Assembly (NCBI GenBank): GCA_036379555.1
Contig: DASVGM010000002.1
Location: 1 to 38,676, forward strand
Source: Pirellulales bacterium
GTDB taxonomy: Bacteria > Planctomycetota > Planctomycetia > Pirellulales > JAICIG01
Length of the DNA stretch: 38,676 nucleotides
Direction of reading: 5' to 3'
Positions 9,637 to 36,657 of this stretch are shown piece after piece; position 1 is the first letter of the stretch, and the number at the start of each line of letters is the position of its first letter. A program made the position numbers and the translations under genes. The notes under the pieces were generated by a model that was not told the DNA's origin, ran no database searches, and saw only the letters and a program-made list of their open reading frames with translations.

Positions 9637-10296
9637 ATGAGCTTGGACGACATCGCCACCGAGCGCTGGCGCACACACACCAGCGCCGAGGGGCTAACCT
9701 GGGGCATGGTGCTGGACGGCGCGGCGCTCGTCGAGGCAATTGAAAAGCACGCTCGCCTGGCCGGGGTGGCGGTACTGGAAATCGGCCCCGGCTACGGCCG
9801 GCTTTTGCGGTCGCTCGTCGATTCATCCGTCCCGTTCGCGAGCTATGCCGCGCTCGACATATCGGAGCATTGGGTGCGCGAACTTACGAAGGAGTTTCAC
9901 AGCCACCGCAACATTTCGTTTATGTGCGCGCCGGTTACCGAGGCGAACACTAAATTCGCAGGCCGGCAGTTCGACTTGATTGTTTCGATGTTGACTTGGA
10001 AACACTTCCATCCTGATTTCGCCGCGGCCGCGCGCGCTTGTCGTTCGCTGCTCGCCACGGACGGCCGTTTGATATTCGACCTGCCTGAGACAGATGTCGC
10101 CTGGCCCGCGCCGACGAATGTGGCGAGCGGAACCTTTGAGGAAACCGGGGCCTTCACGCGCACCTACACGCGGCATGAGGTGCAATCGTTGCTCGGCGAG
10201 GCCGGCTTGACCGTCGTGATGTTTGATGAAATCGCGCATGCGCCTGATAAGCGGCGTTTGCTCGTCGTCGCGCGGCGGGCCGCCGGCCCGTCTTGA
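9637..10296 (+). CDS. Class I SAM-dependent methyltransferase (paralog of the C-terminal domain of the upstream gene)
   Basis: ATG lies 4 nt after the upstream stop. VLEIGPGYGRLL, DLIVSMLTWKHF, GRLIFDLPETDVAWPA and DKRRLLVVARR align with the upstream protein. The last codons (AAGPS) and the stop lie inside a palindromic repeat. Confidence 0.8.
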   Translation: MSLDDIATERWRTHTSAEGLTWGMVLDGAALVEAIEKHARLAGVAVLEIGPGYGRLLRSLVDSSVPFASYAALDISEHWVRELTKEFHSHRNISFMCAPVTEANTKFAGRQFDLIVSMLTWKHFHPDFAAAARACRSLLATDGRLIFDLPETDVAWPAPTNVASGTFEETGAFTRTYTRHEVQSLLGEAGLTVVMFDEIAHAPDKRRLLVVARRAAGPS

Positions 10297-10366
10297 AACG
10301 AAAGACGGCGCGGCGAGCCGCCCCACGATACGCTGCCACGGCGAAATCCGAGTTTTCGGATAGCCT
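10272..10366. repeat. ~95-nt palindromic 3'-end element (family R6), copy 1
   Basis: gcggcgggccgccggcccgtct...agacggcgcggcgagccgccccacgatacgctgccacggcgaaatccgagttttcggatagcct. This is over 90% identical by eye to 28952-29045. It fills the gap between convergent genes ending at 10296 (+) and 10367 (-). Confidence 0.85.
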
Positions 10367-17049: not shown

Positions 17050-17316
17050 CCCTAATGTCACGAGATGAAGCGACAACCTGACATTCAGCGAAGGTAGTGG
17101 AAGATGCCCTCGGCTTGCCCGAGGGAGTTTTCCCGTTGGCCGTCTACAAACGCGGCTTTCCCTACCCTCCGGATTTTGCCCCGCTTGGCCGCCGAAGGCA
17201 GCCAAGCGGGGCAAAATCGGGAAAAGGGGCGCGGGCAACGCCCGATTGTAGACAGCCAACGGGAATCTCCACCCGGCAAGCGGGTGGCATCAGAGCTTAA
17301 TCTCGTGACATTAGGG
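17050..17316. repeat. Long rod-like palindromic element (family R1) copy A, nested in a further 17-bp inverted repeat
   Basis: Core 17100-17291 begins gaagatgccctcggcttgcccgagggagttttc and ends ctccacccggcaagcgggtggcatc. Its internal stems are paired. The outer perfect 17-bp inverted repeat is ccctaatgtcacgagat (17050-17066) / atctcgtgacattaggg (17300-17316). Confidence 0.85.
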
Positions 17317-17418
17317 GCGAACCTGGCGGAAGCGGGAACTCGCCCGCGAATCAAAAGCTGCGATGGCAGCAAGTTGCTGAAGTCTCCAAAACCGTGGGGA
17401 TGTCGGAGATTCGCGTTA

Positions 17419-18675
17419 CTATCGAACCGGCCAAACCGTGCCGCGGGGCCGCCGCAAAAGATAACACCATAGCCCGATCGCGCTGAGCAACATCAACACG
17501 CTCGCGTTTTGCGAAATCGTCATGCCGGTGCCGAAAACGCTCGCTTCGTCCACACGCGTGCATTCCTGCAAAAATCGCGAGATCGGATGAATCGTAATCA
17601 TCATGGCGAACACTTCGCCATCGTGGCGGCGATAAGGATAGTAGGCCAATAGTAAGAGACACATCAACAAGCCGTCGATCGCCGCATAAAGTTGCGCCGG
17701 ATGGATCGGCAGCGTACGTTCAGGAACCCAATCAACCGTCCAACTCGCGGGCAGCGACTCAAACGAGGCATCCGTGACAAAAACGGTCACCTTGTCGCCC
17801 GGATGACGCGCCTGCGAAAGCGTGAAGGCGGCATCGTCGAGAGTTGGCGTGGCGTAGTCGAGGTCGTTAATTACAATTCGTTTCAACCGCTGTCCGGCAT
17901 GCAAGCCGGCACGAGCCGCCGCCGAATCAGGCAGCACCGATTGAATGACGGGGCGGTGCCGCTCGTCGGCCTTCAGCACCAGCCCAAAGAGCGGCAATTT
18001 TCCGTCTTCGACTTGCGCCAGATAGGCGGGACTGCCGGGCGGAAAGCGGACGGCCCAAGGCTCATCGCAAAGGCCGCCGAAGCAGCAGCCATTGAGAAAA
18101 CAGCCCACGCGACCGCACGCCAGACCCAGCATGACGCTGGGCGAAACGAGATCGGCCAAGGCCAACCCCGGCAAGCGGTATTTGCGCACGAACAGGAGCA
18201 GAGCCAAGCCCGCGCCGCCGGCGGAGCCGAAGACCACCAGCCCGCCCTTGGTGAAATTGACGATCTCTTTAATGGTGTCCAGCCACGTCGGCTGCCGGTA
18301 TTGGTGCCAATATTCAATGACATAAAACGCCCTCGCGCCGACAATGCCGCCGATGACCATCCAAAAGGCGAGCGCCTGAATCATATCGGGATTCAGACCC
18401 ATGCGGCGGGCGCGGTACATGGCCAAACCGACGCCCGACATCAGCCCCATGAGCAACATCACGCCATAGCCGCGAATCGGCAGTCCGCCGTTTTCGGCGA
18501 GCCTGGGCAGCAGCAACGCCACGATCGCGCCCACGATGGCCACGGTGGGCAGATAACCTCGCAACGCCGCCGGCCATCCCTGCTGCCGCGCGGCCCAAGC
18601 GATGGCGGCGGCCGACGCCACCGCCCAGAGCAGCAAGAGCCAGGTCAGCGGCAAGTGGAAGAGGGTTTGCAGCAT
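17419..18675 (-). CDS. lgt: Prolipoprotein diacylglyceryl transferase with inserted PDZ-like domain
   Basis: MLQTLFHLPL... from ATG 18673-18675. GLPIRGYGVMLLMG, GRVGCFLNGCCFG and IHPAQLYAA are Lgt-like. A ~90-aa insert (aa ~225-305) looks like PDZ: PVIQSVLPDSAAARAGLHAGQRLKRIVINDL...PGDKVTVFV. The track ORF to 18933 runs into a repeat. Confidence 0.9.
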   Translation of the reverse strand: MLQTLFHLPLTWLLLLWAVASAAAIAWAARQQGWPAALRGYLPTVAIVGAIVALLLPRLAENGGLPIRGYGVMLLMGLMSGVGLAMYRARRMGLNPDMIQALAFWMVIGGIVGARAFYVIEYWHQYRQPTWLDTIKEIVNFTKGGLVVFGSAGGAGLALLLFVRKYRLPGLALADLVSPSVMLGLACGRVGCFLNGCCFGGLCDEPWAVRFPPGSPAYLAQVEDGKLPLFGLVLKADERHRPVIQSVLPDSAAARAGLHAGQRLKRIVINDLDYATPTLDDAAFTLSQARHPGDKVTVFVTDASFESLPASWTVDWVPERTLPIHPAQLYAAIDGLLMCLLLLAYYPYRRHDGEVFAMMITIHPISRFLQECTRVDEASVFGTGMTISQNASVLMLLSAIGLWCYLLRRPRGTVWPVR

Positions 18676-18682
18676 TGGGGGA

Positions 18683-18732
18683 GGGTTCAGGGTTCGGGGT
18701 TCAGGGTTCAGATGAGGGATGAGGGATGAGGG
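18683..18732. repeat. Tandem heptamers (GGGTTCR)x4 followed by (ATGAGGG)x3, immediately upstream of the lgt start
   Basis: gggttca gggttcg gggttca gggttca g atgaggg atgaggg atgaggg, read directly. Confidence 0.85.
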
Positions 18733-18774
18733 ATGAACCGTAGCCGACTTCGTGCGAAGTCGAACCGTGACGTT

Positions 18775-18965
18775 GAAGATGCCCTCGGCTTGCCCGAGGG
18801 AGTTTTCACGTTGGCCGTCTACACCGGGCATTTGCCACCAATCCCTTCTCCGATTTTCCGCTGCTTGGCCGCCTTTGGCGGCCAAGCAGCGGAAAATCGG
18901 AGGATTGGGAAAGCCGGCGGTGTAGACGGCCAACGTGATTCTCCACCCGACAAGCGGGTGGCATC
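18775..18965. repeat. Long rod-like palindromic element (family R1) copy B
   Basis: Same ends and architecture as copy A, in the same orientation. Perfect 26-bp central hairpin ctccgattttccgctgcttggccgcc ttt ggcggccaagcagcggaaaatcggag. 16-bp stem acgttggccgtctaca / tgtagacggccaacgt. Confidence 0.85.
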
Positions 18966-19105
18966 AACGGTCCAACGCCGCCACGACGAAACGAAGAAAC
19001 AACTGTCAACCCTTCATGTTGCGATTTGAGACGGCGCCAATTCCACTACAAATTATCACGCGTTCTCCAAGGCCGGTGCGCAACGCGGGTTAGCGGGGCG
19101 AACCA

Positions 19106-19138
19106 CCCTCACCCCAGCCCTCTCCCGGAGGGTGAGGG
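19106..19138. repeat. Short REP-like hairpin ccctcacc...ggtgaggg
   Basis: ccctcaccccagccctctcccggagggtgaggg has an 8-bp outer stem. The sequence type recurs in many genomes (translates as SPLPEGEG). Single copy in this window. Confidence 0.5.
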
Positions 19139-19177
19139 AGCACGCGCAAGCGGATGCGTTCTTTCCATTCTCCACTT

Positions 19178-19233
19178 TCATCCCTTATCCCTCATCCTTC
19201 ATCTCTCATCTCTCATCCTTCATCTCTCATCCC
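19178..19233. repeat. Tandem heptamer array (TCATCYY)x8, inverse orientation to 18712-18732
   Basis: tcatccc ttatccc tcatcct tcatctc tcatctc tcatcct tcatctc tcatccc in perfect 7-nt phase. It overlaps the last 4 codons and the stop of panC (stop at 19220-19222). Confidence 0.85.
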
Positions 19234-27091: not shown

Positions 27092-27173
27092 GGGGTCCAC
27101 CTTTCGTTCCAAGTTGTGACGTCAAAGGCCAGCATTTGATTATACCATTCACAGCCCGAAATGAGGTTTCCTT

Positions 27174-27340
27174 CTTGGAGTGCGGCGATTCATCGCCGCT
27201 TTCCCCCGTCGCGGAGCGACCTTTGCTTTTCAACCAAGACGGACAGCGGCGGCGGCGGTTGCCAGGCCGACGCTACGCGCGAGGCGGCAAAAGGCGGCTC
27301 CCACGCAAAGGAAAGTGGTGATGAATCACCGCACTCCAAG
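27174..27340. repeat. Inverted doublet of R2 elements (cttggagtgcggcgattcatcgccgctttcc...gtcgcggagcgacc)
   Basis: Plus-orientation copy 27174-27221. Inverted, more diverged copy ending at 27340 (gaaagtggtgatgaatcaccgcactccaag). Each has a 7-bp hairpin gcggcga ttca tcgccgc. Confidence 0.8.
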
Positions 27341-27390
27341 AGGCGGCCAAAAATCGAGTCAGCGGCATTTCTGGCCGCGATTCAGACGAC

Positions 27391-28659: not shown

Positions 28660-28951
28660 GATGATTTCTCGCACTTACTCGCACGCCACCGGGCAAGGTG
28701 GCAAAACATCAGAATTAGCCGATTGGTGCCGCGTTTGCAAGCGGTGCGTCTGGACGGTGGCAAACTTTGCCGAAGGCGCTATTCGTGACGTTGAACAATT
28801 CAAATCCCTCTGGTGCGCGGTCCAGCCCAAGCCGGTCGCATCCCCCAGCCTAACAGAAACCGCCGCCTTGCCAGCACGCTCCGCATCGCTGCCGGCCGTC
28901 GTGTTGTTTGAGAGCGAGGAGCCTCTTATAGGCTATCCGACAATTCGCCGT

Positions 28952-29045
28952 GGGGCGGGCCGCCGGCCCGTCTGGTGGCAAAAGACGGCTCGGCGAGCCG
29001 CCCCACGATACGCCGCCACGGCGAAATCCGAGTTTCGGACAGCCT
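28952..29045. repeat. ~95-nt palindromic 3'-end element (family R6), copy 2
   Basis: ggggcgggccgccggcccgtct...agacggctcggcgagccgccccacgatacgccgccacggcgaaatccgagtttcggacagcct. It ends 1-2 nt before the stop codon of the minus-strand NUDIX gene, the same placement as copy 1 relative to the gene ending at 10367. Confidence 0.85.
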
Positions 29046-34143: not shown

Positions 34144-34336
34144 GTAGCAGACTTCGTAAGAAGTCAGGCCGCGGCCGCCTTCTTGGAGTGCGGCGATTCA
34201 TCGCCGCCTTCATCCGTCGCGAAGCGACCTTCTCCCCAACTGCAATGACCGAATCGACCGATTCAAAACGCACCGAAATGAAGAGAAGGTCGCTCCGCGA
34301 CAACGGAAAGCGGCGATAAATCGCACGCACTCCAAG
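34144..34336. repeat. R3 hairpin plus inverted doublet of R2 elements in a divergent intergenic region
   Basis: gtagcagacttcgtaagaagtcagg (34144-34168). R2 plus copy at 34182-34229. R2 inverted copy at 34288-34336 (ggtcgctccgcgacaacggaaagcggcgataaatcgcacgcactccaag). Confidence 0.85.
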
Positions 34337-36579: not shown

Positions 36580-36585
36580 CACTTC

Positions 36586-36633
36586 CTTGGAGTGCGGCGA
36601 TTCATCGCCGCTTTCCTTTGTCGCGGAGCGACC
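36586..36633 (+). repeat. Single R2 element 7 nt after the stop of the PPC-domain gene
   Basis: cttggagtgcggcgattcatcgccgctttcctttgtcgcggagcgacc is nearly identical to 27174-27221. Confidence 0.85.
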
Positions 36634-36657
36634 TTTTCAAGAGCTATACTTGCCTGA

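Follow-up and report, generated by a model that had tools for sequence, protein, structure and literature searches.

Related systems and the elements at the lgt locus

The closest described systems to the elements reported here are repetitive extragenic palindromic (REP) units and their doublets (REPINs) with REP-associated tyrosine transposases (RAYTs), insertion sequences (IS) of the IS200/IS605 family, class 3 TnpA_Y1 transposases, and the bacterial interspersed mosaic elements (BIMEs) of enterobacteria. The elements, copies A and B, are two palindromic stretches of ~190 nucleotides (nt) on either side of lgt in 38,676 nt of DNA (the window) from a Pirellulales bacterium (GenBank assembly GCA_036379555.1, contig DASVGM010000002.1, positions 1 to 38,676). 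Each consists of a unit, a central hairpin and the reverse complement of the unit, with small hairpins facing outward and CTAC/GTAG tags facing inward. We conclude, with a probability of roughly 80%, that A and B are non-autonomous REPIN-like members of a Planctomycetota repeat family that belongs to a REP/Y1-transposase system. A preliminary description of the locus had proposed either a structured RNA or a DNA hairpin resembling a REPIN or a miniature inverted-repeat transposable element (MITE). The latter is supported by a unit that is dispersed, multi-copy and tandemly amplified; because this unit also flanks a Y1 transposase gene in related genomes, A and B are most likely REPIN-like mobile DNA and not an RNA gene. 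The observations that carry this reading are the anatomy of the elements, the distribution of the family, the covariation of its stems and its association with the gene. Our confidence in the family assignment is high, and in the transposition mechanism, which is argued by analogy, it is moderate.

The family shares several features with REP/REPIN-RAYT systems ('REPtrons', the GTAG-tagged superfamily). Its short palindromic units have a conserved GTAG/CTAC tag and are inverted into hairpin-forming doublets; the units are intergenic, reach high copy number and form tandem clusters; stems are lineage-specific and tags are conserved; and a Y1 HUH (histidine-hydrophobic-histidine) transposase gene is flanked by the same units, here in related genomes (features compared with those in PMC3733652, PMC3116915 and PMC3333891). 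The design of the unit differs, as its tag is ~20 nt from the hairpin with a second conserved motif (TCACGTT) between them, whereas the REP tag is at the hairpin foot, and both a GATGCC foot and a CTTGC loop are conserved here. Clusters are a (+) run followed by a (-) run and do not alternate. The protein is a fused, two-domain enzyme that scores with model NF033573 and not with the RAYT model NF047646, and thus is not of the RAYT clade (class 2).

From IS200/IS605 elements (IS608, ISDra2) and the gene-less palindrome-associated transposable elements (PATEs), we recognize the enzyme fold and motifs (HUH in DHVH, then LWQPSAY...Y), the small end hairpins, which are probably read as single-stranded DNA, and the apparent absence of a target-site duplication, none being seen at the element ends. 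However, the ends at lgt are inverted copies, whereas those of IS200/IS605 and PATEs are same-strand hairpins without terminal inverted repeats. In addition, the IS200/IS605 enzyme is a homodimer of subunits of ~140 amino acids (aa), but here one chain has two Y1 domains, one of them without HUH, and the units are amplified far beyond the gene copy. Because the gene layout varies and the ends are inverted, we consider this system to be closer to a REPtron/REPIN than to an IS or PATE.

Class 3 TnpA_Y1 proteins (Quentin et al., 2018), found in Planctomycetes and Acidobacteria, are flanked by 'atypical secondary structures' and were described as intermediate between IS and REPtron (PMC6006769). 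They resemble the present system in their occurrence in Planctomycetes, their REPtron-like character and their high-copy hairpins. However, class 3 proteins have ~178 aa, carry the motifs NHVH, W[TA] and YV..EQ, and go with a CnGA foot (PMC6006769), whereas here there are 280-290 aa, DHVH, WQ, a domain duplication and a GATGCC foot. Enterobacterial BIMEs likewise combine REP units and conserved linkers in mosaic clusters and are reiterated in tandem, but in BIMEs two REP types alternate in orientation and here direct runs switch once. Linker motifs for IHF or gyrase were not identified here, although no search aimed at them was made.

Anatomy of copies A and B

As first reported, the copies bracket lgt in the same orientation on the plus strand (starts 1675 nt apart) and have matching ends. 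The left 33 nt are the same in both, and the right 25 nt match except at one position (R). Neither end was found outside the two copies in the window (chance expectation 0), and the longest identical stretches common to A and B are of at most 35 nt. Their features are as follows.

17100-17291, no strand assigned: copy A core, an inverted doublet of unit (+), central hairpin and unit (-), with matches to the unit hidden Markov model (HMM) at 17102 (+) and 17291-17239 (-)
17103-17147, + strand: copy A unit (+), with a GATGCC foot
17107-17113 and 17119-17125: copy A unit (+), small hairpin, CTTGC loop at 17114-17118
17144-17147: copy A unit (+), CTAC tag, closing a tail of GGAG and then CCCGTT (a variant of the consensus CACGTT)
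17168-17222, no strand assigned: copy A central hairpin, 26-nt arms, 92% complementary, 3-nt loop GAA
17248-17291, - strand: copy A unit (-), GTAG tag at 17248-17251, then AACGGGA, CTCC and a GGCATC foot
17269-17275 and 17281-17287: copy A unit (-), small hairpin, GCAAG loop at 17276-17280
18775-18965, no strand assigned: copy B core, also an inverted doublet but lacking outer arms like those of copy A, unit HMM matches at 18777 (+) and 18965-18920 (-)
~18772: left repeat boundary of copy B, marked by loose contig ends in metagenome runs
18778-18822, + strand: copy B unit (+), CACGTT at 18807-18812, CTAC at 18819-18822
18782-18788 and 18794-18800: copy B unit (+), small hairpin, CTTGC loop at 18789-18793
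18848-18902, no strand assigned: copy B central hairpin, 26-nt arms, 100% complementary, loop TTT
18922-18965, - strand: copy B unit (-), GTAG at 18922-18925, AACGTGA at 18932-18938, GGCATC foot at 18960-18965
18943-18949 and 18955-18961: copy B unit (-), small hairpin, loop ACAAG

The predicted single-strand folds have energies of -133.8 kcal/mol for copy A (z -11.9 versus shuffles) and -138.1 kcal/mol for copy B (z -13.7), the latter with a four-way junction. The four double substitutions by which A and B had been said to differ are present base for base. They are 17133C/17262G in A versus 18808A/18936T in B, and, in the central hairpin, 17178G/17212C, 17180C/17210G and 17182C/17208G in A versus 18858C/18892G, 18860G/18890C and 18862T/18888A in B. 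The associated count of one mismatch and one bulge overall understates the irregularity of copy A, in which segments 17149-17167 and 17223-17246 pair only partially and are not alignable with copy B. Metagenome contigs show that the C-G versus A-T difference at 17133-17262 corresponds to two abundant sub-families in the community. In these contigs, essentially all other copies have C-G in place of the 18862T-18888A pair of copy B, and nearly all others in the community have G where copy B has the loop base 18950 (A).

Copy A lies within a larger structure. Labels such as L006 and L155 refer here and below to repeat- or gene-bearing loci from related genomes or metagenomes.

17050-17071, + strand: left arm of the outer inverted repeat of copy A, 22 nt, 95% complementary to 17295-17316
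17295-17316, - strand: right arm of the same repeat, also found on the right-hand side of cores in L006 and L020
17051-17315, no strand assigned: long form (copy A core plus outer arms), repeated over its whole length in related genomes and in metagenome runs

The perfect 17-bp inverted repeat noted earlier around copy A is real (the outer 17 nt of these arms), but it is not a nesting specific to this locus. L006 matches window positions 17051-17148 and 17247-17302, L020 matches 17101-17326, and the arms 17051-17099 and 17292-17315 recur beside cores in L006 and L020 (another metagenome-assembled genome, MAG). In metagenome runs, contig depth rises from ~75-90 to thousands between ~17055 and ~17327, with loose ends at 17313-17315. 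Because the arms recur in these loci and depth is raised across them, we assign the outer repeat to a longer repeated form. A second long form, of ~320 nt with the ends CTAGCACCAAACGG...CCGTTTGGTGCTAG, is the amplified unit of a Pirellulaceae MAG. Core-less 'empty' outer arms, whether those of copy A or those of the Pirellulaceae form, were sought as proof of nested insertion and were not present among the repeat-bearing loci collected.

The repeat unit and its arrays

An alignment of 360 distinct units defines a unit of ~48 nt, with a GATGCC foot, a 7-bp stem, a CTTGC loop, the return stem and the tail GGAG-N2-TCACGTT-N5-GCTAC. Position by position, the consensus is G-ATGCC, stem, CTTGC, return stem, GG-A-G-nn-T-C-ACG-yT-n-G-C-n-G-CTA-C. 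In the tail, conservation of the unpaired positions is 87-99%, and T, ACG, T, G and CTA are near-invariant. Stem sequence varies freely between lineages while loop, foot and tail are conserved. The tag is conserved as CTAC/GTAG (CTAG in some lineages) and its distance of ~20 nt from the stem is atypical for a REP. Left and right units are reverse complements (loop CTTGC versus GCAAG, foot GATGCC versus GGCATC). Repeat boundaries fall at the GATGCC/GGCATC feet, and the tags are internal.

The unit profile identified 496 units in 143 sequences (918 kb of selected loci), exactly four of them in the window. Almost every locus has n (+) units followed by m (-) units, with hairpin ends outward and tags inward. 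Values of n and m span 1 to 14 with a tandem period of ~67 nt (e.g., 10+11, 4+14 and 7+8), and the window type is 1+1 with a central hairpin. Very large convergent arrays, with up to 10 (+) then 11 (-) units at a 67-nt period, occur at L114:890-2300 and in L097, L134, L119 and L037. Because the ~20-nt tails of the two array halves differ, these large arrays depart from simple palindromes. On the right side of the transposase gene described below, L155, L156 and L157, which are the same locus in different samples, have 4, 9 and 4 tandem (-) units. Thus, array length is polymorphic.

Arrays also affect gene prediction. Public gene calls without a Pfam match cross tandem arrays at L163:3369-3989 and 4970-6046, and are spurious open reading frames (ORFs). 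All-against-all clustering of ORFs near the elements gave mostly spurious ORFs that span repeats.

Distribution and copy number

We scanned a collection with one genome per species, which excludes the genome of the window itself, for the 20-mer of the left hairpin. It occurs in 22 places, and the true relatives are all Planctomycetota MAGs (Pirellulales SMAG_U2130, a Pirellulaceae MAG, Anammoximicrobium and a Planctomycetia MAG). The Pirellulaceae MAG has 10 copies of the exact 20-mer, and therefore at least 10 copies of the family. In metagenomes we used a pattern in which ATGCC, CTTGC, GG, GCAAG and GGCATC were fixed and both stems were free. Among the matches listed there are at least 120 contigs, and in nearly all of these the free N5/N5 positions are complementary. 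More than a dozen stems are represented among them, including CTCGG, ACGGC, ACCGG, CCGGG, ACCCC, AGGGG, CACGG, GCGGG and GCAGG. The element is thus widespread in Planctomycetota MAGs and metagenomes.

Window-type copies elsewhere occupy non-syntenic contexts. In a sludge metagenome, the depth of the element is ~60-215 times the single-copy depth.

A transposase gene beside the units

We searched 142 repeat-bearing loci for transposases, by motif regular expression and with phmmer and tblastn using a RAYT. A single classical RAYT-like ORF of 221 aa emerged from the motif screen, in L105. Its protein matches PF01797 and also NF047646, the latter at a score under the NF047646 cut-off. Since a different GTAG-REP flanks it, we rejected it as the partner of the units. 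Extension of the L105 contig (L155-157, Pirellulales MAG GCA_035533075.1) and gene calling on it identified another gene, missed by the screen, between two unit clusters:

L155:5873-6715, - strand: gene for the 280-aa tandem-domain transposase

The 280-aa protein matches PF01797 in two stretches (E 2.3e-23) and NF033573 (IS200/IS605) at 97.9 bits; against the RAYT model NF047646 there is no match at E<=1. It has at least 380 relatives of ~280-290 aa (E <= 1e-5). Many of the genes are on contigs of ~1 kb, as expected if repeats break assemblies on both sides.

Six further relatives, chosen by protein alone, were looked up. Units abut the gene in L158, L159, L160-162, L163 and L164, and L165 has three (+) units, the gene and four (-) units of a divergent version. 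In total, units directly flank the gene in 8/8 contexts looked up, one of them (L165) with the divergent version. The gene in L159 has a start codon that overlaps the tag and a stop codon inside the (-) unit. The order (+) units, gene, (-) units is found in L159, L163, L164 and L165. Because this order occurs in related genomes, the doublets of the window look like the same arrangement minus the gene. For the 221-aa RAYT family, used as a control, units were beside the gene in 0/4 contexts: there is no unit within ±10 kb in L143-L145, and in L105/L155 the nearest is ~2 kb away, beside the 280-aa gene. The search for a RAYT- or IS200-like transposase elsewhere that the preliminary description had recommended thus led to a Y1 gene of IS200 type, flanked by the units in related genomes.

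The rejected RAYT-like gene has repeats of its own. It lies in L105:830-2000 (= L155:2340-3510), flanked by GTAG-REP doublets (GTAGCCCGCTCGCTCCGCGAGCGG) and ~2.6 kb from the tandem-domain transposase gene, so that two REP/Y1 systems are side by side in one Pirellulales genome.

We aligned 98 members of the 280-aa family. The N-terminal half has no HUH but keeps RGYFACT.GKS...YL..QGEHHGY, and the C-terminal half has HUH as DHVH, plus LWQPSAY.GS.G...Y. Compared with solved chains, the N-terminal half matches IS608 TnpA and the C-terminal half matches IS200/ISDra2 TnpA. An AlphaFold (AF2) model has a pLDDT (predicted local distance difference test) of 95.9 and a pTM (predicted template modelling score) of 0.92. 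Its best Foldseek matches are the ISDra2 and IS608 TnpA-DNA complexes, with one domain matched each time (TM-score 0.75-0.85 on target). Judged by motifs and predicted structure, the 280-aa protein is two fused IS200/IS605-type Y1 HUH transposase domains, with HUH only in the C-terminal one. In the model it resembles a TnpA dimer whose subunits have been joined in a single chain that has only one catalytic HUH site. The family fits no subclass of the 2018 TnpA_Y1 survey (PMC6006769).

The enzyme and the element ends also bear on a classical MITE derived from an IS with a DDE transposase, moved by cut-and-paste with terminal inverted repeats and target-site duplication. The two units do form terminal inverted repeats of ~45 nt, and the ends of the ~320-nt form recall the CTAG/TA targets of IS630-type elements. 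However, copies A and B, L006, L020 and L014 show no target-site duplication at their ends, no DDE transposase is bracketed by units in the 918 kb of loci, and the protein between units is a Y1 HUH enzyme. Moreover, conserved loops with free stems indicate recognition of a hairpin and not of a duplex. We consider such a MITE highly improbable, and rejected the IS630-like reading of the CTAG-ended long form, as no DDE gene supports it.

Pairing constraint

Stems differ between lineages and stay complementary. In 66 distinct small hairpins, all five free pairs covary, with 85 cells of double-sided change compared to 27.9±3.6 in shuffles (0/500 shuffles reach 85) and a covariation score of 0.484 (0.129 when shuffled, and 0.127 or less with partners slid). 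For the central stem we used 90 distinct candidate doublets, screened to exclude any with an intact internal unit. Their longest perfect stems have a median length of 20 bp, whereas in shuffles the median is 4 bp and the maximum 9. In all, 70 different stem sequences are represented, most of them with triloops that come in complementary pairs (TTC/GAA, GTA/TAC, TTT/AAA). Among eight copies of one lineage, there are 7 compensated, 4 wobble and 3 broken cells.

The strong covariation in both the small hairpin and the central stem, the very stable folds, and the position of both copies between genes of a co-directional row are what would be expected of a structured non-coding RNA (a cis-regulatory element or small RNA gene) whose rod is kept by selection at the RNA level. 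Several results argue against this. Of 3017 stem positions 2910 are Watson-Crick, with G·T/T·G at 23 and A·C/C·A at 17; since these counts are similar, neither strand is favoured as a wobble-tolerant RNA. The best-conserved positions are the unpaired motifs common to lineages with differing stems. Rfam gave 0 matches at the gathering score in the whole window, and relaxed thresholds returned only generic hairpin models, on both strands, at 25-30 bits versus cut-offs of 70-99. A promoter and terminator scan identified no more sites than in shuffles and none tied to the elements. The units also form tandem arrays in both orientations and abut a transposase gene. Runs labelled transcriptomic, available as assembled contigs only, have a flat, DNA-like depth of ~7 on genes and carry no strand or transcript information. 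Thus the structured RNA of the preliminary description is not supported, and we regard it as very unlikely.

The paired substitutions could also be mutational and not selective in origin, if template switching within a strand or between sister strands copies a change from arm to arm of a quasi-palindrome in one step. Template-switch correction of quasi-palindromes is established in E. coli. Consistent with this process, compensated cells (7) equal uncompensated ones (4 wobble plus 3 broken) within the single lineage, central stems are perfect while neighbouring spacers are not, and the complementary triloops TTC/GAA, GTA/TAC and TTT/AAA are similarly frequent. However, template switching leaves the conservation of unpaired loop, foot and tail across lineages unexplained, and selection for mobilisable hairpins predicts the same pattern of pairing. 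As a purely mutational account we find it possible, though somewhat doubtful. Homogenisation of arms by intrastrand templating is a viable explanation of the paired substitutions alongside selection for hairpin integrity.

Proposed mechanism

We favour the reading of A and B as REPIN-like mobile DNA. Conserved loops with free stems point to recognition of hairpins, not of duplex DNA. By analogy with TnpA of IS608/ISDra2 and with RAYTs, the 280-aa enzyme would recognise the small hairpins as folded single-stranded DNA via loop, foot and tail. It may move or copy doublets in trans, as those enzymes do with their own hairpins. In single-stranded DNA, the long rod would bring both small hairpins to a four-way junction, ready for a two-domain enzyme. 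The paired substitutions between A and B would then reflect descent from different palindromic sub-lineages, with pairing preserved either through the mobilisation of intact hairpins alone or through template switching that copies changes between arms. Expectations for strand-transfer chemistry, cleavage sites and current activity would likewise follow from these analogies.

Some observations weigh against this reading. The 38.7-kb window contains no transposase gene, of the 280-aa type or otherwise, and the gene association is seen in related genomes only. The gene-unit layout is not uniform, being inverted or mixed in L155, L158 and L160. Contigs from the metagenome and 'transcriptomic' runs contain no empty site or insertion polymorphism at the lgt locus. 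Finally, the element ends are inverted repeats, whereas canonical IS200/IS605 ends are hairpins in the same orientation on one strand. Thus, the peel-and-paste model is not directly transferable.

We tentatively propose, at slightly less than even odds, that this is a previously undescribed REP-like system of Planctomycetota. In it, a single-chain 'pseudo-dimer' Y1 transposase with one HUH site would service a composite 48-nt hairpin-plus-tail unit and yield gene-less doublets and convergent arrays of up to ~20 units, with a rod that brings the end hairpins together on single-stranded DNA. In the literature we identified no specific description of a tandem-domain Y1 transposase or of a Planctomycetota REP system of this design.

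lgt and possible host use

The gene between the copies belongs to a minus-strand row (sulfatase, lgt, panC, folK-AAA), and both copies are intergenic.

17419-18675, - strand: lgt (prolipoprotein diacylglyceryl transferase; PF01790, E 7.6e-53), bracketed by the copies and not part of the element

The start codon is at 18675 and not at 18678, as first given. Lgt has 418 aa, and the 240-position Pfam model covers residues 62-406, which implies an insertion of ~100 aa relative to the family model.

The elements may be mobile in origin and yet kept near lgt by host use (3'-end protection or termination, or as protein-binding or supercoiling sites, as proposed for enterobacterial REP/BIME), which would add to our reading and not replace it. 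Within the same-strand gene row, 128 nt separate the lgt stop from copy A downstream and ~100 nt separate the lgt start from copy B upstream, and REPs in other phyla are located for the most part downstream of genes and have been proposed to function as RNA elements (PMC3733652). However, no U-tract follows the hairpins, and a separate small terminator-like hairpin is already present between lgt and copy A (17357-17370, - strand). We consider such a role unlikely, and read-through transcription of the elements possible. Nothing ties the family to lgt, and other copies are in unrelated contexts; the bracketing of lgt appears incidental.

It had been suggested that direct copies could mediate rearrangement of lgt, but no read or contig evidence supports this. 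No contig of the metagenome or 'transcriptomic' runs indicates a deletion or inversion between A and B, and the joints at lgt in metagenome contigs are repeat-collapse chimeras with unknown middles.

Other repeats in the window

Other repeats are found near lgt and elsewhere in the window. Directly upstream of the lgt start codon are heptamer runs, (GGGTTCA)n then (GATGAGG)n, at 18685-18737, with an inverted partner on the far side of copy B, at a distance of 440 nt (19177-19232). Other Pirellulales loci (L001, L144, L155-157) contain these heptamer runs as well. The sequence to the right of copy B (18966-19147) is as over-represented as the element in metagenome runs (depth 500-8500 versus 8-90), with breakpoints near 19038 and 19106-19141. 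It is another high-copy repeat, present in none of the repeat-bearing loci collected.

A second, unrelated palindromic family occurs at 27170-27341, 34178-34324 and 36582-36638 (83-93% alike), as two complete inverted doublets (arms 27173-27224/27290-27341 and 34193-34234/34283-34324) plus a half copy. A third repeat of 91 nt, at 10265-10355 and 28945-29035 (89% identity), is rich in GC and contains an internal hairpin; L020 shares an identical stretch of 26 nt with it.

Implications

For annotation of the window, A and B are best treated as selfish or semi-domesticated repeats, and neither as an RNA gene nor as an lgt-specific regulatory feature. In practice, the units also break short-read assemblies (leaving many transposase genes on contigs of ~1 kb) and create spurious ORF calls.

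To our knowledge, REP/REPIN-RAYT systems have been studied almost only in Proteobacteria. The same REP logic would operate in Planctomycetota with three differences: the design of the unit, arrays in which a direct run is followed by an inverted run, and a homodimer that would have become one polypeptide with a single HUH site. The system may thus serve as a natural test case for two questions: how a Y1 enzyme brings two DNA hairpins into a pair, and by what route IS200-like elements give rise to REP systems.

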